DNA from: a virus
Lineage: Duplodnaviria; Caudoviricetes
Length of the DNA stretch: 64,000 nucleotides
Virus record (IMG/VR): IMGVR_UViG_3300032007_000023
Span: 64,001 to 128,000 of that record
Strand: one strand, 5' to 3'
Every line of letters starts with the position of its first letter. Positions within the stretch are counted from its first letter, which is position 1. Shown here in pieces: positions 16,978 to 33,630 of this stretch. A program made the position numbers and the translations under genes. The notes under the pieces were generated by a model, which worked only from the letters and a program-made list of their open reading frames with translations, was not told the origin of the DNA and did no database searches.

Positions 16978-17119
16978 TTTTCAAAACCTCCTGTTATTGT
17001 ATTAAATATGTTATTGAACCTCGAGGTAAGTTCTACCGTATAAGGTTAAAACATACATTATGGTTTGGTCGGGAATCATCGACAATCCATAATAATTTTA
17101 TGAAAAGGAGATGTTAATT

Positions 17120-20100
17120 ATGGCTGAAGATAGGGTTCAACTTAAACAAGAAGAAATCGTTGGTAACGAAGTTGTTCTCAGCGATATAAACCCTAAGTCA
17201 AATACCAAGTCAATAGATGACCCCACGACAGGTGCTTCATTGGATAAGACTCTTGAAAGAATGTGGCAATCAATAAACAACAAACTTTCACGTATTGTCA
17301 ATAGTGTTAATGGTCGTACTGGTGTTGTCGTTCTTGATTCATCTGATGTCGGACTTGGTAATGTCGATAACGTTTCATTCGCCGATATCAAGCAATGGGT
17401 TATAACAAGAACTGCCCAGGAATTTGGTTTCAAGAGACTTGCATTATTCAATTCTCTTCGTGAACTTGATGATACTATAAACCATGAATGGTTACATGAT
17501 GAGGTGTATGCAAATAAACCCTTCTATTCACATCATGGTTATAAATCAAATGGTGTAATGGATAACCGTGGTTACATAGGTTACATCTATTACGATTCAT
17601 CTGTTAATAAGCTTAAGCATACTGAGATGGTTCTTGACACTATCGGTTCTGCTGATAATTCTATTATATATAATGAGCAAGGACATCAGAATGGTGAAAC
17701 TCGTGACTATAGTGAAAGCGGTCGTATAGGTGTAAACATCTGGACATATGAAGATGCTCTTGAGGTATATAATAATATATCCTCTGAAAATAAGGCTGAC
17801 TCGGGTCTTCGTATAAACAAAGACAATATCGCACCTAAACTTTATTTCTTTGATGGAGTATATGGTGATGGTGCTACTTCACGGGATCCAAATGCGTTAC
17901 TTTACTATGCTGCTAAGGATATCGAACAGGATAAACCAAATGCTGTTGATATTTATATCGATGGAACCAAGATAGAATATAATAGATCAAACAGTCTTGG
18001 ACAGAATCTGTACAATAATACGAATTACATCAAGCAATCATTCAAAGTAAATGATCTCATTCTTTGTAATTTCAATGATGAGAATTATCTCCAGCCGGTT
18101 GATGCTAGTCATGCTAATGATAGGGTGCTCAATATTGAAATGAATCCATTGCTTATGCTTAAGAGACCTTGTATTGGTCAGGTTACAAAAGCACCGACAG
18201 CACAAGATCCTTCGGTTAATTATGAGATTAGATTCTATTCAATAAGACAGAATATATATCGCGGTCTCAAATATGATACTATACATACTAATGATTCAGA
18301 CTATCCTAATGGGGCTTTAAGTGTTGATCTGCTTACAACAACCACTATCAAAAAAGGAGATGATCTGATTTATGTGACAACAGTACCAAATCAGAAATTC
18401 GTCAACTTAAGTGGTATGAATGCAATGCGTCCATATAATCCGAAATATCAGCATACAAATAATGGTGCTGGTGGTAAACGAACATTCAGAACCATATTGC
18501 CAACAGGTGTTATTACTGATATCTATCAGGATGATACAACTGGCTTACCTAATGAAGAAGGTTCAATGTTTATCTTACCAAACTATTCATTGTGTGTAAT
18601 TCCATATACAGCACATGTTGAACAAAACAATCAGCTTGTAAGTAACTGGCCTATGTCTGCTCCTCCTATACCCAATGAACCAAATTGGGATTATGGAAAT
18701 AATGATACCACCTTATTGGGTATTAACCTTGTTAAAGGTGTAAATAAATCATCTTCTGATACTCGTCCTGGTTTTGTAACAAACCTTTCTGGATTAAGGA
18801 TAGATGATGAGGTAGACCCAATAACTGGTAAATGGCTTGGTATTGGTGATAATTCCGGTATATCAATACAAAACCATTCAGGTGGTTTATCAGTAAATGT
18901 GGGTAGTTTCCTTGAAATAGGTAGCTCTGACGCATCATATGCAAAGAATAGATCGGATATTTTCTTCTATGAGGAAGGTAAGGTTAATGTTCGTATTGAT
19001 AAGATGCGAGGTTTACATGAATCATATGATAATAAACTTTCTGTAAATATATCAGAGAATACAGCGCCAAAGGATCATGATGCGAACCATCTCTCTGGTG
19101 GTTTGAAATTTACTGATGACTATGGTGACGAAGCTACACCACAATATGGTGTTCTCTCCGTGAATACCGGAGGAAATGCAAGAGGTTTATCAATAAAGAA
19201 TAATACTCCTTGTGATGTAAAATATAATATAGCAGGTAATCCTATACATGTCATCAATGAAAGTAATGTATTAGGTGTTCAGCTGTATGATTTAACAAGA
19301 GAAATATCTCAAACCACATCAGAAACAATAACACCTTCCGGTCTTGAAATAAAGTATGGAATCTTTGAAGAAGACATTGTTCCATTACTTCCGAACAGTA
19401 ATGTTTATTCTAAAAAAGTATGGAACACTGTATTTGATCTGGATTATGAACTCAATTTGGATCCAGCACAATATCCAAATCGAACACCATTCAAAGATAA
19501 TGAAGTATATATTGCAGCAGGTTCAAGGTGGATAGTTAGTACATCAGAACTTGTTTATCATCCCTACGTTGTATTCTATTCTGACAAAGATCAGTATGAT
19601 CAAGTTCTCGATTCAATAAGATCGGATCCTACCATATGGCCTGAATCAAAACAATGTCATGTACTTATTGAAGATTCATCAGATCCGGATGTATATACCA
19701 TAACCGGAAAAGCATATGGTGATATTATTAATTTACATTTACCAGATACTGATTTCAATGGAAGAATATTTGCAGATGATGCATCTTTTGTAAGACGTAT
19801 GACAGCTATCATGTCAAGTGCCTTACCATCAATCTATGTTAAAAAAGATGCAACAACCGGTGGTATTGAAGGATTCTATAGTGATCCTGAAAAAACAACT
19901 CCGTTTGTCATTCCATCTACTGCGGTTGAAGGTGATCTTTTTACCACTATGAACTATGTTGAGGAGTTTAATATTCCTGGTAATAGTGAATTATTATATG
20001 AAATACTTTATGAATGTTATAAACCTCAGGGATCTGATAATCTTGAATTGCGTGTGTATAAACCATCTGGTTTAGGAGATCAAGCACCAGATCCATGGAC

Positions 20101-20881
20101 AGAGTCTTCATTCATTGAGATGCTTCGTAGATCAGATGCAGATCAGAATGGTAGAATTACTACTGTTGATTCAACATGGATTCTCTCTTTTTATGCAGAG
20201 TTACAAAATGAATATCGTGGTATGTCATTGACAGATGCATGGATTGCATTTTTGGATGCTCACGGAAAGACTGTCAGTGATGATCCTATTATAACAATAT
20301 TCAGTTGTAAATATGAAAAGGGTGTTCGTATAAAATATGATGAATCGCGTGGTATAACGTATTCACCTATATTGATCGAAGGATCATTAATTGATGGAAC
20401 CGATAGATCTGATTATGATATTAATACACTTAGGGCTAATGCAAAACATGATGCTATCAGTATTAAAATCGCAGATCCTTCTTCAGGTGTTTTGACATTC
20501 GACAAATATATTTGTGGAGGTCTTAGGTTTGGCACAAATGGATATCTCGGTGTGCGTATAAATAATTCAAACAAATATAATGCAGCATTACCATCAAAGA
20601 ATAATGGAACACAGAGTGATGATCTCTCCATAGGAACCCGTGGTCTTCATATATATGACAAGAATATTCTCGGTATTCAGTTAACTAATGACGGCAGAAT
20701 CGATAATGGTGAGTTATATTTTGATGAAGACGGTAATCTTCGTATATCTAAAGCATTTAATCCGGGAAAAGAAAACATGACAATTTCAGGAAAATTGAAT
20801 GGAGTAACAACAAATGTTTCTTATAATGGATCTGAAGATGTTACAATAACACTTGGTCCTGGATTGTGTTTTAGTGAATGA
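17120..20881 (+). CDS. tail fibre/spike protein with beta-spiral-like repeats and a split dockerin-like domain
   Basis: AAGGAG SD; VNSVNGRTGVVVLDSSDVGLGNVDN tail-fibre repeat; GLx repeats; two EF-hand-like dockerin repeats. Confidence 0.75.
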   Translation: MAEDRVQLKQEEIVGNEVVLSDINPKSNTKSIDDPTTGASLDKTLERMWQSINNKLSRIVNSVNGRTGVVVLDSSDVGLGNVDNVSFADIKQWVITRTAQEFGFKRLALFNSLRELDDTINHEWLHDEVYANKPFYSHHGYKSNGVMDNRGYIGYIYYDSSVNKLKHTEMVLDTIGSADNSIIYNEQGHQNGETRDYSESGRIGVNIWTYEDALEVYNNISSENKADSGLRINKDNIAPKLYFFDGVYGDGATSRDPNALLYYAAKDIEQDKPNAVDIYIDGTKIEYNRSNSLGQNLYNNTNYIKQSFKVNDLILCNFNDENYLQPVDASHANDRVLNIEMNPLLMLKRPCIGQVTKAPTAQDPSVNYEIRFYSIRQNIYRGLKYDTIHTNDSDYPNGALSVDLLTTTTIKKGDDLIYVTTVPNQKFVNLSGMNAMRPYNPKYQHTNNGAGGKRTFRTILPTGVITDIYQDDTTGLPNEEGSMFILPNYSLCVIPYTAHVEQNNQLVSNWPMSAPPIPNEPNWDYGNNDTTLLGINLVKGVNKSSSDTRPGFVTNLSGLRIDDEVDPITGKWLGIGDNSGISIQNHSGGLSVNVGSFLEIGSSDASYAKNRSDIFFYEEGKVNVRIDKMRGLHESYDNKLSVNISENTAPKDHDANHLSGGLKFTDDYGDEATPQYGVLSVNTGGNARGLSIKNNTPCDVKYNIAGNPIHVINESNVLGVQLYDLTREISQTTSETITPSGLEIKYGIFEEDIVPLLPNSNVYSKKVWNTVFDLDYELNLDPAQYPNRTPFKDNEVYIAAGSRWIVSTSELVYHPYVVFYSDKDQYDQVLDSIRSDPTIWPESKQCHVLIEDSSDPDVYTITGKAYGDIINLHLPDTDFNGRIFADDASFVRRMTAIMSSALPSIYVKKDATTGGIEGFYSDPEKTTPFVIPSTAVEGDLFTTMNYVEEFNIPGNSELLYEILYECYKPQGSDNLELRVYKPSGLGDQAPDPWTESSFIEMLRRSDADQNGRITTVDSTWILSFYAELQNEYRGMSLTDAWIAFLDAHGKTVSDDPIITIFSCKYEKGVRIKYDESRGITYSPILIEGSLIDGTDRSDYDINTLRANAKHDAISIKIADPSSGVLTFDKYICGGLRFGTNGYLGVRINNSNKYNAALPSKNNGTQSDDLSIGTRGLHIYDKNILGIQLTNDGRIDNGELYFDEDGNLRISKAFNPGKENMTISGKLNGVTTNVSYNGSEDVTITLGPGLCFSE

Positions 20882-20899
20882 GAAAGGAGATTTTGTTAA

Positions 20900-21412
20900 A
20901 TGAGTAATATTAAAATCACTCTTGCTCTTGATAATTCACTTGAATATGGTAATAAGGGTACAGGTCCATTACGAATAAAAGCATCAAAACTTGACGAAGG
21001 TACTTCGCGTGCTAATACATTAGAATTTAAATCTGATGGATTATATGCTCAAGCAAAGCCAGGAGACCCCGGTTCTACAGGAACCGGGTATCCTGACAGA
21101 TATGAATCATATAATGGAATAAAGTCCGGTGTCACAACACCGCATTCAGATGATTCATACCCGCGGAGAATCGTTGCAGATTGTTTTATTCATCGAGTCT
21201 TTACTGGAGTATGGAGAAATAATACTGTTGAAGATCTTGACGTACGAGATTTCGATAGAATATATCCTGGGGATCTCGTGCGATACAAAAATACAGTAGA
21301 CAATAAATGGGTGTATCATGTAATCACTGCAGTTGATAATACCGATCAACATATTCTTGAATTATCTCGAGTAATAGCATTTATTCCTTTTACAGAAACA
21401 GAGGTTAATTGA
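20900..21412 (+). CDS. small fibre-like protein (MSxNIK family)
   Basis: AAGGAG SD; N-terminus shared with the next two genes. Confidence 0.6.
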   Translation: MSNIKITLALDNSLEYGNKGTGPLRIKASKLDEGTSRANTLEFKSDGLYAQAKPGDPGSTGTGYPDRYESYNGIKSGVTTPHSDDSYPRRIVADCFIHRVFTGVWRNNTVEDLDVRDFDRIYPGDLVRYKNTVDNKWVYHVITAVDNTDQHILELSRVIAFIPFTETEVN

Positions 21413-21429
21413 TTTAGGTGGTGTGATGA

Positions 21430-21837
21430 ATGAGTAAAAATATAAAATTAACAATAGACGCATTACCAACATCTTCAACGGGACTCGGGTTTGATGATAA
21501 TAAATTAGTAGTTAAAATATCAAAGACTGCTAATAACGGACTGAGTATTGTTAATGGAAAGCTTGTTGCTACAAAAGCACCTGATGGTACACCAGGTGGT
21601 GGAACAATGAATCTTCCTGGTAATGCAATTGGTCCGACAACAGCATCAAGCACTACAGCTCTTGGTACAGTGGGTTTAAATAAAACGGTATCAAGAAAAC
21701 AAAAGGCAGGTAGTAATCAAAGTCAATTTGTAAAAGATTCTGATGGTCCTGTAATGACAAAAGTGTCAAACGGTTCATTGGTCTCTAATAAATCCATTGC
21801 ATCATACATGATTCGTTATAATCAAGAAAACCCATAA
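21430..21837 (+). CDS. small fibre-like protein (MSxNIK family)
   Basis: AGGTGG SD; GLGFDDNKLVV and GLSIVNGKLV repeats. Confidence 0.6.
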   Translation: MSKNIKLTIDALPTSSTGLGFDDNKLVVKISKTANNGLSIVNGKLVATKAPDGTPGGGTMNLPGNAIGPTTASSTTALGTVGLNKTVSRKQKAGSNQSQFVKDSDGPVMTKVSNGSLVSNKSIASYMIRYNQENP

Positions 21838-21864
21838 ATATAAATGCGAGGTGATATATGAATC

Positions 21865-22596
21865 ATGAGTAAAAATATTAAAATCAATTTGGATCTTGGC
21901 GACGGTTTAAAAACCGAAAATGATAAATTATGTGTTGATTTTGAACCCAACTCATATATCCGATTAGATACTGATTCTGGTATCCCAGGACATAACGGTT
22001 TACACGTATCTAATTTAAATGGTGAAGATGGAGCTGGTGGTAGATCAACCTGTGACAATTGGACACTCGTTCCTGGTAATGGTGTAAAAATACCAAAGGT
22101 TTGGAGTGACCAAATAACAAATTTCTTGGACGTAAGTAGAGATGTCATAACCTGTATATTTAGTATGGGTTTATATAGAATATCCAATAGGAGAACATCT
22201 TCTCCACAATACACTTCTAATGTCAAAGATGTTAGAGCTATGTGTAATGAAATTGATGCTCCAAGTAGATATTGTTCGGGTACATATTATAGACCATGGA
22301 TTGGTGATATAATTCAGCTCGTTGAATATCCAAGTCTGAGGTATGATACAGGAAAAGGTGACTATTCCGGACAGAATTTCTGGTGTGAATCATTACGTCG
22401 TGAAGGTCTGGATAAAGATAATAACCGTCAGAAAACCAGAGTAATGTTCGTCATAACAAGTATAGAATATGGTGGTTCTGATGGAGCATGGATAAACAGT
22501 TTATCTTTACAATGTATATATTCTAAAGACGTTGGCACATATGTTGTAGGAAATACATACACAGGAAGTTATGATTTTTCTGCACCTTACGTTTAA
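21865..22596 (+). CDS. small fibre-like protein (MSxNIK family)
   Basis: GAGGTG SD; LGDGLKTENDKLCV. Confidence 0.6.
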   Translation: MSKNIKINLDLGDGLKTENDKLCVDFEPNSYIRLDTDSGIPGHNGLHVSNLNGEDGAGGRSTCDNWTLVPGNGVKIPKVWSDQITNFLDVSRDVITCIFSMGLYRISNRRTSSPQYTSNVKDVRAMCNEIDAPSRYCSGTYYRPWIGDIIQLVEYPSLRYDTGKGDYSGQNFWCESLRREGLDKDNNRQKTRVMFVITSIEYGGSDGAWINSLSLQCIYSKDVGTYVVGNTYTGSYDFSAPYV

Positions 22597-22623
22597 TCAT
22601 CATATAAGTAGGAGGTTAATAGA

Positions 22624-23964
22624 ATGGATAAAATAAACCTTAAAGATCAGCTCTCTTTTGCTGATGATTCTAATATGAAACATGGTCTCAGAGGTCATGT
22701 TAAAATAGAGCTTGAAAATACCGAAACAAAAGAAAGGAAATTCTGGTATGAAGATGATAATATCATACCAATATCAGGTTACCAATGGATTCTGATGAAG
22801 ATGTTCGGTTTACATCTTGACTCTGTTCATGACCCTAATGTGAAATACGAAGAGATTGGTAAAGATACATCTCTTGTTATCCCGGATCTCAATGAAGTTG
22901 GTCAACTCGGTATCGGCAGAGACCCTCAGGATACTCGTGAAGGATATGGATATACCCCAATGGATGACGACATATCATCGAATCATTTCATCCAGGGATT
23001 CCTCGTTGGTAATGGTGGTGCCGCTGAAGATGTTATAACAACTAAGAATACAGATTATTCTTATACAAATCTTCGTTCTCCTATACCGTTCCAGCAGGTA
23101 TCTGCTATCGAGGGACTTGATTCTTCTATGGCTGGAAAATACCTTGGCGTATTCCGTCAGTCATCAACAGATCAGAAATCTTATTTCATAAAGAAATTTG
23201 ATTCAAGAGCTCATATCTATCACAACTGGTGGAGAGACGGTCAGCGTTGGGATTACCTCGATCCTGTTGTTCCATCCGAACTTGGTCCTGGCAGAAATGG
23301 TGATAACAATGTTACTCCTAAGACAAACAGAATTGAGACATATGCAGAGGTAGAAATGTCTATCGATGTTAAGAACGGTGACTGCATGGGTTACTTTGCT
23401 CATTCTGGTAATAATGAAACTGCAAAGATCAATGAGCTCGGTCTTGTTGCATTTGATACTGTTCCCGGTGAAAGATCTACTGTAGAGCAGTTATACAATA
23501 CTCTTATCAAGAGAATGATAACTATCATCTTTGATGAAGATCGTGGTGAATATGCTGGTGAAGAAGTTGTATCTCTTGCAGGCGACATATCCACAGTACT
23601 TCAAGAAAATCTTATCTATGAAAAGGGTCAGACCAATATCAATAATTTCATAGATAACGTTGTAAATGTTCTTGCTAATGCATCTCCTGCTGATATTGAT
23701 TATACTGCAATGCAGGTAGAATTATGTCGTGTTGATGAACATGATAATCCTACTAATATCGGTGTTCAGGCATATTACAATCAGAATCATGTATTCCAAT
23801 ACTTCACAGACAAGTTCCTTGATTATCTTGCTGGAGAAGAGTTCTCAGCTCTCACAACCGACGAAGCTCAGAGAATTAAGCTTGTAACATATTACACCTT
23901 TAATTCTATACCTCTTCAGGAAAACTGGAAGGTTCTTATTTCATATAGAATTTATGCTAACTGA
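22624..23964 (+). CDS. baseplate / tail-fibre attachment structural protein
   Basis: GGAGG SD; LRGHVKIELEN..DNII, VGNGG and INELGL motifs resembling fibre-attachment domains. Confidence 0.55.
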   Translation: MDKINLKDQLSFADDSNMKHGLRGHVKIELENTETKERKFWYEDDNIIPISGYQWILMKMFGLHLDSVHDPNVKYEEIGKDTSLVIPDLNEVGQLGIGRDPQDTREGYGYTPMDDDISSNHFIQGFLVGNGGAAEDVITTKNTDYSYTNLRSPIPFQQVSAIEGLDSSMAGKYLGVFRQSSTDQKSYFIKKFDSRAHIYHNWWRDGQRWDYLDPVVPSELGPGRNGDNNVTPKTNRIETYAEVEMSIDVKNGDCMGYFAHSGNNETAKINELGLVAFDTVPGERSTVEQLYNTLIKRMITIIFDEDRGEYAGEEVVSLAGDISTVLQENLIYEKGQTNINNFIDNVVNVLANASPADIDYTAMQVELCRVDEHDNPTNIGVQAYYNQNHVFQYFTDKFLDYLAGEEFSALTTDEAQRIKLVTYYTFNSIPLQENWKVLISYRIYAN

Positions 23965-23981
23965 TGAAGAGGTGTTTAACT

Positions 23982-26297
23982 ATGGAAAATACACAGTTAT
24001 TATCTATGATAGACTGTATTACTGAACGGCAGGAAATGGCCGAATTAGAAGTGGCCATTTCCATAGTTGAACAGTGTGTCAAGATGTGGGAAATTGATGA
24101 TCTTCATCGTGGTGATTCTCTTGATGATTTCGCCATATTCCAAGAAGGACAGCTACTTGATGATGCAACTGGAGCTGGTAAACAGGAATCATTGATTAAG
24201 AAAGCAATGCTTCTTCTTCCTCGTTTACTCGGTGCTATAATAAAAGCAATCAAGATGAAGTTGACAGTCAAGGCATCTGTCAAAGAAACATCTCCACGAA
24301 GTGCTTTCCTTAAATATGGAGAAGTTACAACAGAAAGTCTGTCTAAGAAAGAAATCGAAAAGATCAAAAAACAAAAGAAAGATAGTCCTGTATATAAAGC
24401 TATTCTTGGTGTTGGTTGTGCTAGCATTGCTATAGCTGGTGCTGGATTTGCATTCAGAATATCAGACTATTCAGAAGCAGTCGAATTCAAGGATGATGTA
24501 TCGTTTACTATATCCGAAGACCTTAAGGGTATTCGTGTTGTATTCCCATTCTATAAGATCGAAGCTATTAAGAATTTCAATGTCAAGTTTGACGGAATTC
24601 ATCAATCACTTAAAACAGATTTCTTTGGTAATATTGATCAGCTCATGAATCTTATGAAGACTATTGTCACAAACCAGGCTCGTGTATCTGAACGTGACTT
24701 TGCAGATCCGCCGGCATGGACTGCTTATTATCAAAATGAGATAAGAGGTGAATTTAATAAGTTCGCTGATAATCTCGAAAAGATAAAGAATATTCTTGGC
24801 GAGCATAAGATCAATAGCAATACTGTTGCTATTGGTAAAACTCAAGTCAAAGAATTCGTCAAGAAAGTTGAAGAGCTCACAAAGAAGCTCCCAAATGATC
24901 TCGAACTCATTGAGAAGTTTAATGATAAGCTCATCAAGGTATACGATATTCTTGCAAACCCTTCGCTTCACACAAAGCGTGAGATAAAAAAGGCTAACAA
25001 ACTTACATTCAAGCCTATATTCAGTAAAGATGAAATCAATATCTATAAGCTTGATACATCTGAATTATCTGCAGCTATTAAACTCTTTAATGAGTTTGCT
25101 GCTGATAATAAGGGTGAAACTTATGCTGGAATGCTTAAAGCTGCAAAAACATCATCTAAGTTTGCACAAGGTGTAAAGCACATAGAGAATCAATTCAACT
25201 GTTCTATTGATTATACCATATATGGAAAGGGTGGAGCTACCGCCACATATAAAAATAAACCGGGTGATATGAAGGTTACTTTCAATAAGCAACGTGGTTT
25301 TGATCTCGGTGGTGCTAGACTTAATATATTTCTTGATCCAGCCTATTCAGATTCAAAGGCTGGTTCATCCGGTGTTATGGGTCAAATGTTTTGTAGCATA
25401 ATATGCCATGAGATATTCCATAATATAGCAATGCTTGTTCATGTGTATAACACAAAAACTGGTGATGCTATCAGTAAGATCTTTACTAATGTTTATATTG
25501 GTTATGAGAAACTAAAGTCTCTGATTCTTTATATAATGACAGGATATGCGATTTCTCTCGGAGTACAAGGTGTTGACGATATTACTACTCAGAAACGTCT
25601 TGCTTTTGTAATAGAGAATTTTGAAGATAAACAGAAGATGCAGGATTTCATGAATAAGATTACGACTGATTCAGACAAGGATCTTATTGAACCTATAAAT
25701 GTTGATAATGGTGATTCTTCAAAAGCAGCCGTATTCATATCTAAAATACCTAATTTCATGGCCAGTCCTGAATTCAAGACTGTTTGCTCTGCTATAATCG
25801 CGATCATGTATAGATATAACTTCAAGCTCGGTGGTATGTTTGCTATATCTGCATTATTCATGTCTATCTACGGATTAACAGATGTTAAGATGGAGAAGAC
25901 TAACGAAGAAACAATGTGTGATATGTGTGCTGCTATATACAAGCTTCCTGTATACCTTGCAGATGTAAGTTCACAGCGTAAGAATAAAACTGCACGTGAT
26001 ATGTCTACACACGGTAGATTTGATGTACATAGTGCAACATTCGATAGACAGACCGTTTCACTCGGTCTTGCTAAGGAAATGCTTAATTCTGGTGAACAAC
26101 TCGATCCTGATGTTAAGAAGTATCTTGAATTCATCGTTAAGGAAAACGCAGGAAATCAGTATGTTGAAAGGAAGTTCACCAAGAAGCAGATGAAGAAGTC
26201 TGCTCCTGCATTTACTGAAAATATTAACAGAGCTATCACAAACTTTGTTAAGGATCATAATATAACTCTCACAGATGATGAAGGAGATACTACATAA
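23982..26297 (+). CDS. putative head cargo protein with a zincin (HEIFH) metalloprotease domain and hydrophobic segments
   Basis: GAGGTG SD before the ATG at 23982; HEIFH at 25407-25421, EETMCD, VHSATFDR; paralog of 58297..59925. Confidence 0.65.
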   Translation: MENTQLLSMIDCITERQEMAELEVAISIVEQCVKMWEIDDLHRGDSLDDFAIFQEGQLLDDATGAGKQESLIKKAMLLLPRLLGAIIKAIKMKLTVKASVKETSPRSAFLKYGEVTTESLSKKEIEKIKKQKKDSPVYKAILGVGCASIAIAGAGFAFRISDYSEAVEFKDDVSFTISEDLKGIRVVFPFYKIEAIKNFNVKFDGIHQSLKTDFFGNIDQLMNLMKTIVTNQARVSERDFADPPAWTAYYQNEIRGEFNKFADNLEKIKNILGEHKINSNTVAIGKTQVKEFVKKVEELTKKLPNDLELIEKFNDKLIKVYDILANPSLHTKREIKKANKLTFKPIFSKDEINIYKLDTSELSAAIKLFNEFAADNKGETYAGMLKAAKTSSKFAQGVKHIENQFNCSIDYTIYGKGGATATYKNKPGDMKVTFNKQRGFDLGGARLNIFLDPAYSDSKAGSSGVMGQMFCSIICHEIFHNIAMLVHVYNTKTGDAISKIFTNVYIGYEKLKSLILYIMTGYAISLGVQGVDDITTQKRLAFVIENFEDKQKMQDFMNKITTDSDKDLIEPINVDNGDSSKAAVFISKIPNFMASPEFKTVCSAIIAIMYRYNFKLGGMFAISALFMSIYGLTDVKMEKTNEETMCDMCAAIYKLPVYLADVSSQRKNKTARDMSTHGRFDVHSATFDRQTVSLGLAKEMLNSGEQLDPDVKKYLEFIVKENAGNQYVERKFTKKQMKKSAPAFTENINRAITNFVKDHNITLTDDEGDTT

Positions 26298-26866
26298 TGG
26301 ATATAAATCAGAAAAACGTTGAGCAAATGCTCCATGATGTTTCTGGTAATATTCAAGCAAAAGTCTCAGATATACTTGGTGTCTTTTCAGGTATTAAATG
26401 GAACAAGGTATCGTTTACAATTCCAACGGTACCTGTTCCATCACATCGTCCTCGTCTTTGTGGTTACCGGGTCTATGTACCCGGTGCTGCAAAGAACCAA
26501 TCTTTTTTCAACAGAAATGTTTTACCTAAACTCAATGGTTTATTCATAACCACTCCTTGTAAAATGAAGGTAGATATCTTTTGTAAAACTCCAACGTCTT
26601 TTACTAAGACACAACAGATACTTGCCGAAATGAAGGTTATTCGTCCATGGGGGAATACTGGTGATGTTGATAACTTTGCAAAAGCCGTAATGGATCAAAT
26701 GATGCCAAACGAAAAAAGAGGACATGTGGGTATATTACGAGATGATTGTCTTGTAACAGATCTTGATGTAAAAAAATATTATTCTCGTACTCCGAGATAC
26801 GAGGTTACGATTACTTATATGGAAGAATTACCAGATAACGTCAAGAAGACTATGCGATTGGATTAA
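26297..26866 (+). CDS. rusA: RusA-family Holliday junction resolvase
   Basis: PVPSHRPR start motif, GDVDNFAKAVMD and GILRDDCLV catalytic motifs, C-terminal PRYEVTI. Confidence 0.85.
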   Translation: MDINQKNVEQMLHDVSGNIQAKVSDILGVFSGIKWNKVSFTIPTVPVPSHRPRLCGYRVYVPGAAKNQSFFNRNVLPKLNGLFITTPCKMKVDIFCKTPTSFTKTQQILAEMKVIRPWGNTGDVDNFAKAVMDQMMPNEKRGHVGILRDDCLVTDLDVKKYYSRTPRYEVTITYMEELPDNVKKTMRLD

Positions 26867-26964
26867 TGGGGTATAATGAGTAACGACTGCTTGATAATTG
26901 AATCCCATACGAATAAGTATTATTCTCGTACTCCGAGATACGAGGTTACGATTACTTATATGGA
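26777..26964 (+). repeat. 47-bp perfect direct repeat (26777-26823 and 26918-26964) inside a 141-bp-period duplication of the rusA 3' end
   Basis: tattattctcgtactccgagatacgaggttacgattacttatatgga occurs twice. Confidence 0.95.
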
Positions 26965-27013
26965 TTCTGTACCAGAGTCTGTCGCTAAAGTAATGCGACT
27001 TGATGACAAATAA
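26870..27013 (+). pseudogene. diverged second copy of the rusA C-terminal coding segment
   Basis: Translates GIMSNDCLIIESHTNKYYSRTPRYEVTITYMDSVPESVAKVMRLDDK*, in frame with rusA. Confidence 0.8.
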
Positions 27014-27040
27014 TAAATATTACAAGGAGGCTTAATAAAT

Positions 27041-29044
27041 ATGGCAAAAAATGATGATGTTTTGAGCCGCTTTGCGTCTGCCGGTGATAATGCTGTGGGT
27101 CTCATTAACAGGGTTGATGATGCTACTGCTAAATTTCAGCCCGGGATGCGCAGAGGATCAATTGTAAAAAGCGCTCAGGGTAACGTATTTGAGTTCCCTG
27201 TATTTATATCTAACTCTATTCCGTTAGATTATGCAACTGCAACGACATCACTTCTTGAGCAGATTTATGCTGCATATACTCAGATGGCTATATCAATAAA
27301 TCCCGTTGTTGATGCTGCATCTGTTAAGAATGGTCTTCAGTTTGCTGACTTTAAGACTAAGACAAACAAGTATCTCGAGTACACAGATACATCATATCAG
27401 CATGATGCATGTCATGCTGTCTACCAGGAAGATGGAACTCAGTTTGAATTCAATATGCTTTCTATTGAAGATGCTGATGCCCGTCTTATCAATGAAGCTG
27501 TTGATCATCAGCCACTTTCCGAATTTGATCACTTCTTCCAGGAGGCTGTTGGTGACAATCCTGATGACTATACCGCATCATATCCAATGCCAGTTGTTGA
27601 TAATCATGGTAATATTGAGACCCCTCTGCAGTTCCAGCCAGATCCCAATAATCCCAACGGGGTTAGATATGTAACATTGGCAGAACTCAATAGAGAAATA
27701 AATAGTGATCCTACTGTCACATTTAATTTCACAGGAAGACGTGATGAACCACAGCTCAATGGTTATATAAATTGGGTAAATAGTAATCATCTCACAAGAC
27801 CATCAACAGCGGAGATGAACAACTCTCCTTCTGCTAGCGGTGATGTAACATATGATGATGGTCATGGTAACAGACGTACAATATCAGCACAAGAATTAGA
27901 GGCTGCAAATAGAGCATATGCTTTACAAAGAGCTACTACAGCAACAAGAGCAAATGCTGATATTCAGTATACTGATGGTCGTGGTAGAACAGAAACGATT
28001 ACACCTGATCAACTGGAAGCTGCTAATAGAGCATATAGTATTGCACAGGCTGATGTAGCGAGAAGAAATGCAGAAAAAGCTAATTCGAACTATTACAGAG
28101 GTGCTGACGCTATCAGTACTGGTGCAAAAACTGCATCTGATGTACTCGGTGCTGTTAATACGGGTGCTAATGCTGTTGCTAATGTTGCTACACTTCCTGA
28201 CCAGATCAAACAGGCTAAATATAAGACCAAGATCGATAAGGACCGCTTAGATCATCTTGATGAAGATAGAGCTCTCAAAAAGACAGAAGTATATGGTAAG
28301 ATGAAGACTTCTGATATACACTACATCGATGATAGTAAGTGTCAGAAGCTCAATACTATGAAACCTCTGTTGATGAGTGTTACTATCAACATGCTTAACA
28401 AGGATGATTCACTCCAGCCTATCAACTACATCATTGGTGTTAAGACACATATGCGTGTAATTCCTGCATCTATTCTTCCTGAGGTTGCAAGATATCCTCT
28501 TAAGGAAATGGATAAAATTTCTCGTAAGGTTAAGTGGCGTGCTGGTGAACTCAAGTTCCTGAAGGATCTTGTATTCCGTATCAATGAAAAGAAACAGACT
28601 GCTGCTGATTCTCGTGATCCTAACAGAAAATGGTATCGTCGTCTTTATGAACTTGCACATATGAAGGGTGATGCTCCAACAGAAGCAGTTGTTCAGGGCA
28701 AGTCTATCTTCGGTGCATTCATTCGTGATAAACAGGGTAAGGGTAAGCTTAAGAATGGTCTTATTCCTAATGCTTCAATTATCATGTCACAGAATGATGT
28801 TGATAATATCAAGAACCAGACAGATATAGATCTTCTCAAGGCATCTAATGCTAAGAAGTTCTGTGGTGAACTCTTCCTCATCTCTCTCATCATTGTTGAT
28901 ATCGATGCTGAATCAATTAAGATTCTTCTTCCTGATCAGAACAATGATTACGATGTACATTCTCTTGCTGCCGTTCAAAAGCAGTTGGCTACTCTTGATA
29001 CATCAGGAACCAAGACAAGAGATATGTTCAAATTACTCGGCTAA
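27041..29044 (+). CDS. putative virion structural (head) protein with an internal 39-aa-period repeat
   Basis: AAGGAGG SD; FFQEA motif; high-expression codon usage outside the central insert. Confidence 0.6.
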   Translation: MAKNDDVLSRFASAGDNAVGLINRVDDATAKFQPGMRRGSIVKSAQGNVFEFPVFISNSIPLDYATATTSLLEQIYAAYTQMAISINPVVDAASVKNGLQFADFKTKTNKYLEYTDTSYQHDACHAVYQEDGTQFEFNMLSIEDADARLINEAVDHQPLSEFDHFFQEAVGDNPDDYTASYPMPVVDNHGNIETPLQFQPDPNNPNGVRYVTLAELNREINSDPTVTFNFTGRRDEPQLNGYINWVNSNHLTRPSTAEMNNSPSASGDVTYDDGHGNRRTISAQELEAANRAYALQRATTATRANADIQYTDGRGRTETITPDQLEAANRAYSIAQADVARRNAEKANSNYYRGADAISTGAKTASDVLGAVNTGANAVANVATLPDQIKQAKYKTKIDKDRLDHLDEDRALKKTEVYGKMKTSDIHYIDDSKCQKLNTMKPLLMSVTINMLNKDDSLQPINYIIGVKTHMRVIPASILPEVARYPLKEMDKISRKVKWRAGELKFLKDLVFRINEKKQTAADSRDPNRKWYRRLYELAHMKGDAPTEAVVQGKSIFGAFIRDKQGKGKLKNGLIPNASIIMSQNDVDNIKNQTDIDLLKASNAKKFCGELFLISLIIVDIDAESIKILLPDQNNDYDVHSLAAVQKQLATLDTSGTKTRDMFKLLG

Positions 29045-29064
29045 TAAGGAGGTTAGTATAAGAT

Positions 29065-30078
29065 ATGTTATTCGATAAAAAGAAAAAGGATGCCAAAGAA
29101 GAGAGTATCAATGATGTGTATATCGAAAAGATACTCGGTGATCTTAAGGATGTCTATACTAATAAAAGTACCGATGAATATAAGAGTAAAGGTGACATAA
29201 CAAAGTCTCCAAACTATGAAAACATCGAGTACCAGCTTGCTCAGCTTTCAACCATTAAGGGTTATCCGGAGAATGATATTAAGGCTCTCAAGGGATGCTT
29301 TAATGTACTTCACAGACCCGCTTTCAAAAAGCAGGTTACAGAATACATGGCTAAACCTAATGAGAAAAACATAGTTTTTGCTATGGCATATTCAGTGGGT
29401 TACAGACTCCTTATAGGCGAACTTGCCCGGGTTATTGCTTCATCTGAGGCAACTGATAAGGGCTTCGTATATAAAGAGGGAAAAATAACCAAAGAAAAAG
29501 ACTACATGCCTATGATAAGAAAGTTTGCTGACGATATCGATAAGAAACTCGATAAGGCAGTTCTCCAGGCTCATAAGTATGTAACACCAGTTCAGGAAGC
29601 TGCTACACTTAAAGCTATAGGTGTTGCTGCTGATATGGTTGTTGGAACCGTTGAAGGTGTATTCAAGGTTATCAACGGAATCTTCCGTGGTGCTGCTTCT
29701 CTTAATCCGATCTCTCTCATAAGTGCTATATTGACAAGATCTTATGATAAGAAGGTTGAAGAGTATGAGAAGATCTCCAAGGAATATGAGATAGCCAAGA
29801 AAGCATATGATGACTATAAGAAGATTCCTGAAGCTCAGCGTAAAAAACGTATCGAGCATAACTATACAAAGATGATCGAGAAGTACAATATTAAGATGAA
29901 TAATCTTAAAGCTAAGATCGATCATTATGATCTCAGATCTCAGAATGATGCAAAGGATAATAAAAAAGAATCCGAAAAGAAGAAGACTGAGACAAAAACA
30001 ACGTCAACATCTACCACAGCAAAAAAGACTGATGGTAAAAAAGATGATGACAAGGGTAAAGATGATTTCGATTTTTAA
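29065..30078 (+). CDS. putative virion structural protein, Lys-rich
   Basis: AAGGAGG SD; PVQEA motif. Confidence 0.55.
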   Translation: MLFDKKKKDAKEESINDVYIEKILGDLKDVYTNKSTDEYKSKGDITKSPNYENIEYQLAQLSTIKGYPENDIKALKGCFNVLHRPAFKKQVTEYMAKPNEKNIVFAMAYSVGYRLLIGELARVIASSEATDKGFVYKEGKITKEKDYMPMIRKFADDIDKKLDKAVLQAHKYVTPVQEAATLKAIGVAADMVVGTVEGVFKVINGIFRGAASLNPISLISAILTRSYDKKVEEYEKISKEYEIAKKAYDDYKKIPEAQRKKRIEHNYTKMIEKYNIKMNNLKAKIDHYDLRSQNDAKDNKKESEKKKTETKTTSTSTTAKKTDGKKDDDKGKDDFDF

Positions 30079-30087
30079 ACAAAAAAG

Positions 30088-30112
30088 AATCCGGGGTTAT
30101 ACCCCGGATTCC
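30088..30112. terminator. bidirectional terminator
   Basis: gaatccgggg-ttata-ccccggattc, flanked by A and T tracts, between convergent genes. Confidence 0.8.
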
Positions 30113-30122
30113 TCTTTCTTCT

Positions 30123-30377
30123 TTAGCCGTTATCTGTTGCGGCATTCGCAGCGTTCTCGGGCTGCTGTGCGTTCTGCTGATCAATATTCTCCTGCTCTCC
30201 CATTGCCTTAAGCACTCTGTTGATTCTGATCTTGTTGATCGGATATGCAACAATGCTTGCTGCAAGGGAAATGCCTGAAGCGATGTAGCATGTTCCTGTG
30301 AATACGGGATGCTTGCGCTCGAACTTAGTTACCTTTCTTGTGATGCGCTTACATGTCTTCTTATAAGTATTAGCCAT
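30123..30377 (-). CDS. small protein with one hydrophobic segment
   Basis: GAGGAGG SD; basic N-terminus, hydrophobic VFTGTCYIASGISLAASIVAYPI. Confidence 0.7.
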   Translation of the reverse strand: MANTYKKTCKRITRKVTKFERKHPVFTGTCYIASGISLAASIVAYPINKIRINRVLKAMGEQENIDQQNAQQPENAANAATDNG

Positions 30378-30473
30378 ATGGGCCTCCTCTCGTGGGTTTG
30401 TCAGGTTATTCCTTCCTGTATTTTTATTTCAGAAGTCAAGAGGTGAAAGGGTCACCTTTCTTTTCTTCTTCAC

Positions 30474-30490
30474 AGTAATAATATATATAC
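30474..30490 (-). promoter_or_regulatory. candidate phage early promoter (TATATATTATTAC)
   Basis: Minus strand reads gtatatatattattact; a similar motif lies at 31264; resembles the phiKZ early consensus TATATTAC. Confidence 0.45.
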
Positions 30491-30597
30491 GAAAAACATA
30501 AATAATAGGAATTTTAGGTGGTGTTTCTGGGTAGCATAGAAAAGTTGAGGATTAAGAATACTTATACATATATAATTTTATCGGAAGGAGGGATATT

Positions 30598-31008
30598 GTG
30601 AATATTGAAAACATATTACCCTTGATAACTTATATATGTACATATTACTACGATTCGTATTATAATAAAATATTAAATCATGGCGTTAACATACCAGATA
30701 AAATCGTTCCTGCATTAATGAATAGGATATATTCAGATTATGTTAAAACATATGAAACTGAATATGTTCATGACATTTGTATTTTCCCAGGAAATCTGGT
30801 ATATAATAAGACATATGTTTTAGATGAACAATGTCCATCCATAGAAGATATAATTCAAGATATAGATTACTTCATGGATAATTATGATTTTTATAGTGAA
30901 AATATAATACCTATAAATGTAATAAATATAAGTGATCTACCATTTGACAATGGTATCACATATACAAATGAATGGATAAAGCAATTCATTGATGTGTATA
31001 GATTTTAA
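30598..31008 (+). CDS. hypothetical protein, very AT-rich
   Basis: AAGGAGG SD with GTG start. Confidence 0.55.
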   Translation: MNIENILPLITYICTYYYDSYYNKILNHGVNIPDKIVPALMNRIYSDYVKTYETEYVHDICIFPGNLVYNKTYVLDEQCPSIEDIIQDIDYFMDNYDFYSENIIPINVINISDLPFDNGITYTNEWIKQFIDVYRF

Positions 31009-31049
31009 ACGAAAGGATGTCACTACAACGAAAGGAGTGTATTCTTATA

Positions 31050-31247
31050 ATGGGAACTTATTCGATAGAAATATTCGATCATAATAATAAGAAGATTGGT
31101 GAATTACCAACAGCAACATCTTCTGAGATTCTCCAGTTTATAAATAAAGGATTTATCGTTATAGATAGAATGACTGGTAATCGAATGACCGAATCTTCTA
31201 TTACTTCAACCATAGGTGTATCAGATGGTCTTATTAATGTAGGCTAA
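31050..31247 (+). CDS. small hypothetical protein
   Basis: AAGGAG SD favours the ATG at 31050. Confidence 0.55.
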   Translation: MGTYSIEIFDHNNKKIGELPTATSSEILQFINKGFIVIDRMTGNRMTESSITSTIGVSDGLINVG

Positions 31248-31263
31248 TTTTGTAAATATGATA

Positions 31264-31276
31264 CACATATTATTAC
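31264..31276 (+). promoter_or_regulatory. candidate phage early promoter (CACATATTATTAC)
   Basis: Same core as the 30474-30490 motif, upstream of gene 31338. Confidence 0.4.
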
Positions 31277-31337
31277 AACGATTATGGTCTAGATAATTGG
31301 CCATAATAATAAATTTATTTATCAGGAGGAATTATCA

Positions 31338-31763
31338 ATGGCAACTAACAAACCCTTTTCATTCGCTGCTCTTGCTAATTACGGCAACAGCACAGCAGCT
31401 CCCGCTACTAACTTCCAGAAGGCTTTCGTACAGGATGCAAAGAAGTTCGTAGCAAAGTGTGGTTATCCTGGAAAGGATGAGATCGGCATCATGGATGAGA
31501 AGACACCTGATGTAACAAACACAGTGTCTGCAATTCCTGAGTTCGTGTCAGGCTTTATGCATGATGAACAGAGAGCTTTCGATCTTCCTGCACCCGATAA
31601 GAACACTGCTCCTGCAACAATCAAGGTTGAACATGTTGAGGAGAAGAAGTCCGAGGGTATCCAGGCAATGGGTCCTAACAAGGGACAGAAGTGGACTTCT
31701 GTTGTGGCAGCTCATGATGAACCTAAGATCAAGGTTAAGCGTGACGCTTTCAAGAAGAAGTAA
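31338..31763 (+). CDS. highly expressed small protein, possibly HU-like DNA-binding
   Basis: AGGAGG SD, strong codon bias; C-terminus weakly resembles the HU beta-arm. Confidence 0.45.
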   Translation: MATNKPFSFAALANYGNSTAAPATNFQKAFVQDAKKFVAKCGYPGKDEIGIMDEKTPDVTNTVSAIPEFVSGFMHDEQRAFDLPAPDKNTAPATIKVEHVEEKKSEGIQAMGPNKGQKWTSVVAAHDEPKIKVKRDAFKKK

Positions 31764-31779
31764 TTAATCAAAGAAACAT

Positions 31780-31811
31780 TAACAGGGGATTCGTCCCCTG
31801 TTATTTGTTTT
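31780..31811 (+). terminator. intrinsic terminator
   Basis: taacagggga-ttcg-tcccctgtta followed by a T-rich tract. Confidence 0.85.
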
Positions 31812-31841
31812 TATAATTTTATGTAGAAAGGACTGATAAAC

Positions 31842-32897
31842 ATGAGTGATCTAATGTACAATCCCCATCCGGTAGATATTGTTGAAGATAGGTTCGCACC
31901 TATAGAGAAACGTCAACGTGACTTAACTAAGATGCTTCTTGCTAAAGATGGTCTCTTATTGAAATTCATAACTAATCCAACGAATGACGAAATAGCTATA
32001 GCTGTTAAACAAAATGGTGACGCAATAAAGTTCGTATCCAAAGAAAAACACACAGATGATTTGATGTGGGAAGCTATTAGAAGTAATCCTCATTCTATAT
32101 GGTATATGGATAAGAACAAACTAAAGACTCAATTATATATAACGGCTGTGACCACACCTTATACGGGTAATGATCATCCCGTGCATTTACTAAAAACACA
32201 GGATAAGATGGCACCATATCTTGCATTCATTTCACATAATCCACATAATTTCCGAGATATCATAGATGATATAAGAGGACTTGAATTTGAACATTTGATA
32301 TGGAAATATGCTATTTCCAATTGGCAATATTCATTCAATGATGTTTTTGAGACCAAAATTATGTGTCCTATAGAGATACAAGCAAAAATAGTCGATGAAG
32401 TTGTTCGTAGGAATCCTCAACTTCTCGAGATTTTTGACAAATCATTCTGGACAGAAGAACGTGTAAAGAATTATGTCATTTCAAATCCAGTACATGTGCA
32501 TACTGTGTGGGGTCATATCGATATGTCTACAGGCGATTTATATAGATTAGCATTTGACAACTGTAAAGATTCATGGGACGTGATGAGTGTTCTCAATGTT
32601 TATCCGTGCTATGATAAGGAAAGAACAACCGATGAGATGGTGAAAGTCCTTGAAAGTAAACGATGGGATGATATAATAAATCGAGGCATATTCTCTGTAT
32701 TTGCTGAAACAAGAGAAAATGCAGAGTATATAATCGATAGATTCGCGTTCGAAGAGTTAGCTGATAAAGTAAAAGATTATCGACTCAAGGCGATAATTGA
32801 ATTATTACCATTCTTCAAGCGTATCAAATATAAGCATAAGCTCAAGAAATATGTCAAAAATAAAAAGGAGGAAAATAAAAATGAGCAGACTGTTTGA
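31842..32897 (+). CDS. DUF4116-like helical repeat protein
   Basis: KDGLLLKFI..AVKQNGDAIKFV..EAIRSNPHSIWYM repeats. Confidence 0.65.
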   Translation: MSDLMYNPHPVDIVEDRFAPIEKRQRDLTKMLLAKDGLLLKFITNPTNDEIAIAVKQNGDAIKFVSKEKHTDDLMWEAIRSNPHSIWYMDKNKLKTQLYITAVTTPYTGNDHPVHLLKTQDKMAPYLAFISHNPHNFRDIIDDIRGLEFEHLIWKYAISNWQYSFNDVFETKIMCPIEIQAKIVDEVVRRNPQLLEIFDKSFWTEERVKNYVISNPVHVHTVWGHIDMSTGDLYRLAFDNCKDSWDVMSVLNVYPCYDKERTTDEMVKVLESKRWDDIINRGIFSVFAETRENAEYIIDRFAFEELADKVKDYRLKAIIELLPFFKRIKYKHKLKKYVKNKKEENKNEQTV

Positions 32898-33441
32898 TTT
32901 ATTAAGTGAAGACACTAAAAAGGCAAAGGAATATTTGACAAATCCGTCGAAGGAGGAAACATTAGCTGCTGTAAAAGAAATCGAAAAAGAGTATGAGACA
33001 CATAAAGCTGTGGAAACACCCGTTCCTTCTGATGCAAAAACTCCGTATGGATCAACACCTAAATATCTTGAAGGAATAGACATCGATAGACTTGTTCATG
33101 GTGATCCTACCATTCCACTTCTTAAGAAACAGAAATGGGAAGAAGCAAAGAAGTACGGATATGAGTTCACCGAAATACCTAGTGGTGATTTACTTGAAAA
33201 TGAATATACAGAGATCACACAGCTTGTTGAACTCCGTCGTCTTGTAAAGAAGATCATATTCCAGTACAGGACTGATGATGAGATCTATAAGACTGGTAAG
33301 AAGTTTGTAATGTTACTCAAACAGGAAATCAATAAAAAATGTACTGTTTATGATAACAGATCATTTGGTATGAAAGAAGAAGATATTACAATTATAAAGA
33401 GGGGTGATAAAGATGGAAGAATCGACGGCATTGAGGATTGA
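32881..33441 (+). CDS. hypothetical protein
   Basis: AAGGAGG SD before the ATG at 32881. Confidence 0.65.
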   Translation: MSRLFDLLSEDTKKAKEYLTNPSKEETLAAVKEIEKEYETHKAVETPVPSDAKTPYGSTPKYLEGIDIDRLVHGDPTIPLLKKQKWEEAKKYGYEFTEIPSGDLLENEYTEITQLVELRRLVKKIIFQYRTDDEIYKTGKKFVMLLKQEINKKCTVYDNRSFGMKEEDITIIKRGDKDGRIDGIED

Positions 33442-33592
33442 AGATGAGCTTCATAACATCAATCTCAATTTGATGGAGCTTATAGAAGTTATTAAAAAGA
33501 AACAAGAAACACCTAAGCATTCTTCTTCTATTTCTATCGGTTGTATCAGAACCGATTATGGTACTACTGGTGGACCGATGAGTACAAAATAA
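33413..33592 (+). CDS. small hypothetical protein
   Basis: GAGGGGTG SD before the ATG at 33413. Confidence 0.5.
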   Translation: MEESTALRIEDELHNINLNLMELIEVIKKKQETPKHSSSISIGCIRTDYGTTGGPMSTK

Positions 33593-33596
33593 ATTA

Positions 33597-33618
33597 TACG
33601 GGGGCAATTGCCCCCGTA
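33597..33618. terminator. bidirectional terminator
   Basis: Perfect palindrome tacgggggcaattgcccccgta between convergent genes, followed by a T tract. Confidence 0.8.
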
Positions 33619-33630
33619 CATTATTTTTTT

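Follow-up and report, generated by a model that had tools for sequence, protein, structure and literature searches.

This study concerned a 64,000-nucleotide (nt) stretch of viral DNA (the window), taken from the IMG/VR virus record IMGVR_UViG_3300032007_000023, and, within it, one gene whose product, the tail-fibre-like protein P0001, carries two calcium-loop repeats resembling the two halves of a dockerin, the calcium-binding module that binds cohesins. The whole record comprises 165,419 bases, with a CheckV completeness of 61% and 36.6% G+C. The gene and the parts of the module, with protein positions in amino acids (aa), are as follows.

17111..20881, plus strand: gene for the 1256-aa tail-fibre-like protein P0001, from the open reading frame (ORF) list and its translation
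17279..17416, plus strand: N-terminal conserved motif, aa 57-102, common to phage tail-fibre and minor-tail families (PHROG)
19739..19819, plus strand: dockerin-like repeat 1, aa 877-903, with Leu-Pro, the 12-residue Ca loop DTDFNGRIFADD and then the helix ASFVRRMTAIMSS; no entering helix
19820..20098, plus strand: insert of ~93 aa, aa 904-996, which interrupts the linker between the repeats and belongs to no known family
20099..20209, plus strand: repeat 2, aa 997-1033, with the entering helix TESSFIEMLRR, the Ca loop DADQNGRITTVD and the exit helix STWILSFYAELQ
20210..20266, plus strand: C-terminal helix of the module, aa 1034-1052, ending in SLTDAWIAFLDAHG; corresponds in the alignment to the ...GW..FM..H end of the phage tail dockerins

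The two loop-helix repeats and their protein family

Both repeats are of the D-x-D-x-N-G-R-I-x-x-x-D loop-helix type, with D1, D3, N5, G6, I8 and D12 present in both loops. Loop 1 (DTDFNGRIFADD) corresponds to aa 879-890 (nt 19745-19780) and loop 2 (DADQNGRITTVD) to aa 1009-1020 (nt 20135-20170), and a helix-forming stretch comes next in each case. The first Asp residues of the two loops are 130 aa apart, with 118 residues between the loops, and the entire module measures ~175 aa. A first-pass annotation of this DNA had described two EF-hand-like repeats about 130 aa apart, and both the exact coordinates and the stretches quoted as following the loops agree with our results. The pair of loops is not a product of chance, because shuffled sequences rarely yield such matches: the loose EF-loop pattern D.[DN].[DN]G.[IVLF]...[DE], run over six frames of the whole 165,419-base record, matched only twice, both times in P0001, and residue shuffles of the six frames gave a mean of 0.05 matches, whereas two or more matches arose in shuffles of P0001 alone with P = 5e-5.

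The insert between the two repeats had no Pfam or PDB match, and a beta-rich character was predicted for it only weakly, in low-confidence models. The insertion point maps to the PSGLTPE linker of the unsplit phage dockerins described below, where the flanks PS...TE align. Repeat 1 is preceded by a predicted strand and not by a helix.

Relatives of P0001 were obtained by word-based searches, namely P0002 (97%), P0003 (86%), P0008 (46% over the whole protein) and the fragment P0005; the contig of P0008, of up to 199 kb, has the same gene order as the window record. P0005 and P0008 share 31-35% identity over the module and keep both loops and the insert, and all five members of the family possess both loops together with an insert of 82-93 aa. 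The residues conserved in both loops of all five proteins are D1, D/N3, D/N/S5, G6 and D12, and loop positions 10-11 differ between two subfamilies. In dockerins, positions 10-11 are the classical cohesin-recognition positions, which touch the cohesin.

When aa 860-1062 were compared exhaustively by phmmer with 1.84 billion representatives, only the family itself (its own cluster and one other) was recovered, along with short spurious matches of aa 862-890 to proteins with InlB repeats and PPC repeats. Therefore, a deeper alignment is out of reach. The scan of IMG/VR with the module alignment yielded no relative, the ESM Atlas feature search no usable match, and phmmer of the module against the PDB nothing below E 0.5.

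Concerning the protein as a whole, the longest ORF begins at 17111, and translation probably begins at the ATG at 17120 (1253 aa), as indicated by Shine-Dalgarno spacing, with an AAGGAG 9 nt before this ATG, and by the start of the homologue P0008 at the equivalent Met. The sole stretch of P0001 matched by PHROG is aa 57-102 (phrog_8780, 13892, 23595, 35419 and others; E 1.8e-5 to 8e-3). The gene sits among large virion-type genes, the neighbours including those for a virion structural protein and a major head protein, and no DNA or protein match to P0001 was found in 50,697 phage records. The earlier description of the product as a tail-fibre protein is thus supported in part, by the PHROG match and by the virion-type neighbours, but not by any wider fibre homology, and P0001 appears to be a tail-fibre-like virion protein whose fibre context is shown in part.

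Relationship of the module to dockerins

The degenerate repeat 2 motif D.[DN].[DN]G.[IV]...D[AS][ST].IL.[FY]Y[AS] was scanned as DNA in one genome per species over 185,579 species (GTDB) and produced >120 matches, which were ordinary two-repeat dockerins; 67 of the 80 loci listed were labelled Ruminococcus. These data bear out the first-pass remark that the DAS/IL..YA flavour is typical of that genus. The same ruminococcal-flavour two-repeat motif was also observed in contigs labelled Alistipes (metagenome-assembled genomes of Bacteroidota; L007, L027, L044 and L069), which could reflect either real transfer or a binning error.

Over IMG/VR, the degenerate motif matched five viral contigs. In L160, L161 and L162, the proteins with the motif are small (204-236 aa), and their C-terminal parts score above the cut-off of the Pfam dockerin family PF00404 (34.8-44.2 bits). 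The unsplit tail-tip dockerin proteins supported by PF00404 are encoded as follows.

L160:8534-9244, plus strand: unsplit tail-tip dockerin protein
L162:874-1488, plus strand: unsplit tail-tip dockerin protein
L161:189-875, plus strand: unsplit tail-tip dockerin protein
L164:1462-2109, plus strand: unsplit tail-tip dockerin protein

The dockerin genes of L160, L161 and L162 stand directly before the Prophage_tail (Tal) gene, and in L160 the gene immediately preceding it is that of the tape measure, a position in the tail-tip module; the gene of L164 likewise precedes Tal and lies two genes after a Dit-like gene. A 65%-identical copy is situated between Dit-like and Tal-like genes in a prophage, in a genome of the Ruminococcus flavefaciens genus. 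The family of unsplit phage dockerins comprises at least 126 clusters at 90% identity, with PF00404 in all of them, and every named one is called "hypothetical". No cohesin was found in the five viral records with tail dockerins, including the 99%-complete record of L162. A further viral protein of 311 aa (L159:5115-6050, minus strand) has one dockerin repeat at its C-terminus, with a PF00404 score of 19.3 bits that covers only profile positions 2-19, and in this it is reminiscent of the group-2 dockerins of R. flavefaciens, which are truncated by nature.

Profile comparison by hhalign placed the two halves of the P0001 module on this phage family. The repeat 1 family profile was aligned to dockerin repeat 1 (92.2%), and the repeat 2 family profile to dockerin repeat 2 and the C-terminal helix (94.4%, 43 columns), both halves being colinear with repeats 1 and 2 of a Pfam-verified dockerin family. 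When the insert was removed in silico by joining aa 870-908 to 997-1062, the module matched the phage tail dockerins at 97.9% with a score of 71.8 over 80 columns, compared with 33.5 +/- 5.6 (maximum 44.5) for shuffled non-loop columns. Against a motif-independent bacterial set, consisting of the 26 dockerins that scored best on PF00404 in three genomes of R. flavefaciens, the insert-removed module reached 94.9% with a score of 42.6, and shuffles sparing the two loops gave 28.9 +/- 3.6, with 0 of 40 reaching 42.6. By this profile measure, the helices contribute a real remainder of the score beyond the loops.

Tests by hidden Markov model (HMM) and hhalign with motif-picked dockerins were discounted as circular for repeat 2, and motif-independent sets were preferred. 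With an HMM of the other, unselected repeat of ruminococcal dockerins, the top match out of 2,474 six-frame peptides of the phage was repeat 2 (13.2 bits, E 0.0074), and repeat 1 obtained only 1.9 bits. In a search of 177,635 PDB sequences, the repeat 1 profile found dockerins, the first being 8ajy_B, the R. flavefaciens ScaH dockerin (ScaH-Doc; E 0.0077), followed by 4fl4, 4uyp, 2mte, 1daq, 3ul4, 2y3n, 2ccl and 1ohz. ScaH-Doc (8AJY) was the best PDB match of the unsplit phage tail dockerins too.

The first residue before loop 1 further connects the phage proteins. Pro precedes the first Asp in all five proteins of the P0001 family and in 113 of the 120 siphophage tail dockerins, compared with 0 of 92 bacterial first repeats, in which Gly takes this place in 91. 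On this sequence distribution, the Pro-Asp start is a shared derived character linking the phage dockerins. By profile, the tail-tip dockerins of siphophages and prophages are the closest relatives of the module: like it, they are encoded in a phage tail module and show the Pro-Asp start, the PS..TE linker flanks and a C-terminal W..F[LM]..H helix, but they are proteins of ~204-236 aa with an unsplit C-terminal dockerin above the PF00404 cut-off, in phages of ~24-40 kb and not in a jumbo phage. The earlier view that the dockerin had been captured from the host is too simple, as the hhalign score of the module is 71.8 with phage tail dockerins and 42.6-45.3 with bacterial ones.

Among characterized dockerins, the likeness to ScaH-Doc (group-4/type III, PDB 8AJY) comprises two Ca loops with Asp12, a first loop starting D-x-D-F-N-G, and helices of the DA[ST]..[IV]L..YA kind. 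The phage module differs from it in being split by ~93 aa, in having Pro and not Gly before the first Asp, in its missing internal symmetry, in the absent Gly-Arg pair, and in falling short of the Pfam threshold. The group 1 dockerins of R. flavefaciens have the longest inter-repeat segments, which are further lengthened by an insertion in subgroup 1b (PMC2930009), so that added sequence between the repeats is evidently acceptable in ruminococcal dockerins. These group 1 dockerins nevertheless differ in the size of the segments, 37-45 aa in comparison with ~118 aa between the phage loops, and in the flavour of their helices, VxIMQxxxNP and ALxIQKxxL (PMC2930009).

Concerning the fold, the halves of the module were modelled by ESMFold2 as two chains with two Ca, which resulted in an ipSAE of 0.50 in comparison with 0.23 for the best control, a result graded by the tool as 'weak support'. 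Of 80 solved complexes, 58 came up to the mark applied, as did 2 of 110 mismatched pairs; at ipSAE <=0.60, only 7 of the 80 solved complexes did so, together with both of the passing mismatches. The runs agreed in at least 78% of contacts, with a partner pLDDT of at least 76. A dockerin fold has two Ca sites and an antiparallel packing of helices 1 and 3. These models give weak support to the packing of the two halves into one dockerin-like unit, and the pass may reflect memory of solved dockerins.

Taken together, the module at ~aa 877-1052 is likely homologous to dockerins, and we consider it probable, from these alignments, that it is a dockerin derivative of a phage lineage that was split by a domain insertion. 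The previous annotation of a split cellulosome-type dockerin is accordingly upheld in the colinear profile homology of the halves and in the PDB matches of repeat 1, but not in a PF00404 match, which P0001 does not give.

Phage type, probable host and neighbouring genes

The record encodes NrdD, gyrase, ThyX, GroEL, PolB, an RNA polymerase beta-type subunit and a tubulin; the Pfam matches (regions L165-L171) were Tubulin/FtsZ (6.6e-9), RNA_pol_Rpb2_6, Cpn60, gyrase A and B, ThyX, NrdD and PolB. Judged by this gene set, the virus is a jumbo phage of an anaerobe. The gene content also suggests a resemblance to nucleus-forming (phiKZ-type) phages, probably with a Gram-positive anaerobic host, which would be unusual. 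DNA of the P0001 gene was present in runs of 10 studies, nearly all labelled bovine gut metagenome. Strong AAGGAGG-type sites precede most genes of the record and fit a host from the Bacillota rather than the Bacteroidota. The lysin of the phage is encoded beyond the window end.

L169:6327-7703 (record 132327-133706), plus strand: phage lysin, Amidase_2 with C-terminal repeats of ~60 aa

Over aa 1-184, this lysin is 75% identical to a protein in the Ruminococcus genome G124; when 400 other genomes of the same order were sampled evenly, the best match was 54%. Proteins of R. flavefaciens 007c and of further genomes of the genus share 42-60% identity with the C-terminal repeats of the lysin. As far as sequence clues go, the lysin match is the best one to the host. 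Cohesins (PF00963) were detected in 150 of 161 genomes of the genus, G124 included. Because of the bovine-gut DNA, the Shine-Dalgarno sites, NrdD, the lysin and the cohesins in the genus, a cellulosome-bearing Ruminococcus is the best guess, and the host is probably a cellulosome-producing member of that genus. The Ruminococcus-like, cohesin-bearing host named in the first-pass annotation is thus plausible on the lysin, the bovine-gut DNA, the Shine-Dalgarno sites and the 150 cohesin-bearing genomes.

A search for CRISPR-spacer-like matches between window positions 17001-37000 and 151 Ruminococcus genomes returned only short AT-rich matches of 80-90% identity, which were judged to be chance. 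Two short AT-rich segments, 30465-30516 and 31300-31345, have counterparts of 35-50 nt with 80-90% identity in many Ruminococcus genomes; they were judged to be low-complexity chance matches and not spacers or RNA genes. Rfam finds nothing there. The Rfam search of the window gave no match at all, and ARAGORN found no tRNA in the window or in the whole 165,419-base record.

Directly 3' of the fibre gene, three small plus-strand ORFs (20900-21412, 21430-21837 and 21865-22596) start with a similar MS(K)NIK..L.LD leader and contain short fibre-like repeats of the G-L...L.V type, and their order after the fibre gene is the same in the relatives L001 and L003. From their sequences, they may be paralogous mini-fibres or fibre adaptors. 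Farther along, a minus-strand ORF of 84 aa (30123-30377) stands between plus-strand genes; it is preceded by a GAGGAGG site of its own, contains one hydrophobic segment, coincides with a local rise in G+C to 43-45% compared with ~30% around it, and could encode a small membrane protein.

Cohesin docking and its alternatives

In the mechanism proposed here, the fibre would display a Ca2+-loaded dockerin-like unit outside the cell, and this unit would plug into free cohesins on the host surface; the virion would thereby gain an initial, reversible grip on the cell or its cellulosome. The most attractive target would be the cell-wall-anchored cohesins of the ScaE type, since ScaH-Doc, the solved structure closest to the module, belongs to the group-4 dockerins and binds the cell-wall-anchored ScaE cohesin with nanomolar affinity (PMC5301203). 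The use of cohesin binding for adsorption is a tentative prediction, which we regard as plausible, at slightly under even odds. The more general proposal that phages of cellulolytic Ruminococcus, from siphophages of ~35 kb to this jumbo phage, adsorb by means of a virion dockerin that enters host cohesins, possibly ScaE, is conceivable and is put forward with some doubt. A clearer instance of phages that dock to cohesins may be provided by the unsplit tail dockerins.

Tail-tip proteins of Gram-positive siphophages are known to carry grafted adhesion modules, such as evolved Dit and BppA-type carbohydrate-binding modules. The principle would be the same, an extra host-binding module on a tail protein that leads to primary, reversible adsorption; however, those modules bind cell-wall saccharides, whereas the proposed ligand of the jumbo phage is a host protein socket, the cohesin.

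Several results weigh against a dockerin that docks to host cohesins. No PF00404 match (cut-off 22.9 bits) was obtained at E <= 10 on P0001, its pieces or the six-frame record; the best family member, P0008 with its repeat 1, remained under the cut-off at 20.8 bits (E 4.6e-4). The compact form of a dockerin, ~60-100 aa with a short linker, was not found, as 118 residues separate the loops, and the insert counts as a contrary point because it is far longer than any dockerin linker described, the longest inter-repeat segments in the R. flavefaciens FD-1 dockerins being 37-45 aa (PMC2930009). The two Ca loops supply about two thirds of the insert-removed score. Repeat 2 alone matched the motif-independent dockerin sets weakly (5-19%), and its profile found calmodulins first in the PDB (E 3.5e-4), ahead of solved dockerins, since the stretch TE....M....DAD.NG.I, which spans its entering helix and its loop, looks like a canonical EF-hand. 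Pfam EF-hand_1 scored 12-13.6 bits in P0005 and P0008 at a cut-off of 25.4, with 13.6 for repeat 2 of P0008. AlphaFold2, supplied with five homologues and with bacterial dockerins kept out so that the answer was not built in, gave a pLDDT of 38.4 for aa 835-1080 and 45.3 for aa 868-1058, which is no usable 3-D model. The module is internal, ~200 aa from the C-terminus, and thus away from the fibre tip. It has no Gly-Arg pair of the kind by which group-4 dockerins recognize cohesins, and the specificity of the module is therefore unreadable from sequence. In the 165 kb of the phage record, no match to the cohesin family PF00963 was found; as this record is 61% complete, its missing part could encode such a partner. 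Finally, the host is assigned from indirect clues.

The main alternative, which would account for some of these points, is a module of dockerin or EF-hand descent that is now a structural Ca2+ site only, which would stiffen or trigger the fibre and bind no cohesin; Ca2+ acts in this way in several Gram-positive phage baseplates. The Ca ligands are indeed the best-conserved feature, the loops account for the greater part of the profile score, a large domain interrupts the module, which lies within the fibre, and both the group-4 Gly-Arg residues and a score above the PF00404 threshold are missing. We nevertheless consider this explanation less likely than cohesin docking, given that the similarity runs into the helices and the C-terminal helix, well above the shuffle controls, that the unsplit siphophage relatives qualify as complete Pfam dockerins and their records yielded no phage cohesin, and that loop positions 10-11 vary with the ligands fixed, as in specificity-bearing dockerins. 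A dockerin that still works could, alternatively, have its partner elsewhere, either in a cohesin-like socket of the virion, onto which the fibre or a different protein would be clipped, or in shed cellulosomes on the plant fibre, which would tether virions where hosts settle. Cellulosomes attach to plant particles, and a phage-encoded socket could be in the missing part of the record; however, this is improbable, in view of the lack of PF00963 from the 165 kb and likewise from the five siphophage records, one of which is 99% complete, and of the closest solved relative, which binds a cohesin that is anchored to the cell wall.

The calmodulin matches of repeat 2 and the EF-hand_1 scores below threshold in P0005 and P0008 would fit an unrelated EF-hand pair with convergent Ca loops and amphipathic helices, in a protein that is perhaps no receptor-binding fibre, considering that its assignment as a fibre comes from a PHROG match of 46 aa and from the gene neighbourhood. 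Repeat 2 does resemble the canonical EF-hands (calmodulin; PF00036) in its full helix-loop-helix and aligns with EF-hand 2 of calmodulin. Canonical EF-hands, however, form an adjacent pair with Glu at loop position 12, whereas the phage repeats are 130 aa apart and have Asp at this position in both loops of all five proteins, and repeat 1 lacks the entering helix and finds dockerins in the PDB. The colinear match to both dockerin repeats and the C-terminal helix, together with the Pro-Asp start that is common with the phage dockerins, makes such convergence very improbable. What a dockerin has, two 12-residue Ca loops with D/N at positions 1, 3 and 5 and Asp at position 12, each followed by a helix, is found here. 

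In the literature searched, no paper tied dockerins to phage tail proteins or named cohesins as phage receptors, and none described the unsplit tail-tip family; one paper mentions a contig, putatively of an archaeal virus, that has dockerin domains (PMC13452462). Should the module bind cohesins, it would represent a mode of receptor recognition not described in the literature searched, in which a high-affinity plug from the host's own surface-assembly system is used. The natural dockerin variants, one of them tolerating an insertion of ~90 aa, could then also serve in designer-cellulosome and protein-assembly work, and cohesin arrays are already in use for R. flavefaciens (PMC5301203). Docking to cohesins, if true, would mean that the cellulosome assembly system doubles as a phage receptor and that cohesin-dockerin specificity partly sets the host range. 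Phage predation would then be tied to cellulosome display in a key fibre-degrading rumen bacterium, in which more scaffoldin would result in greater exposure to phages.

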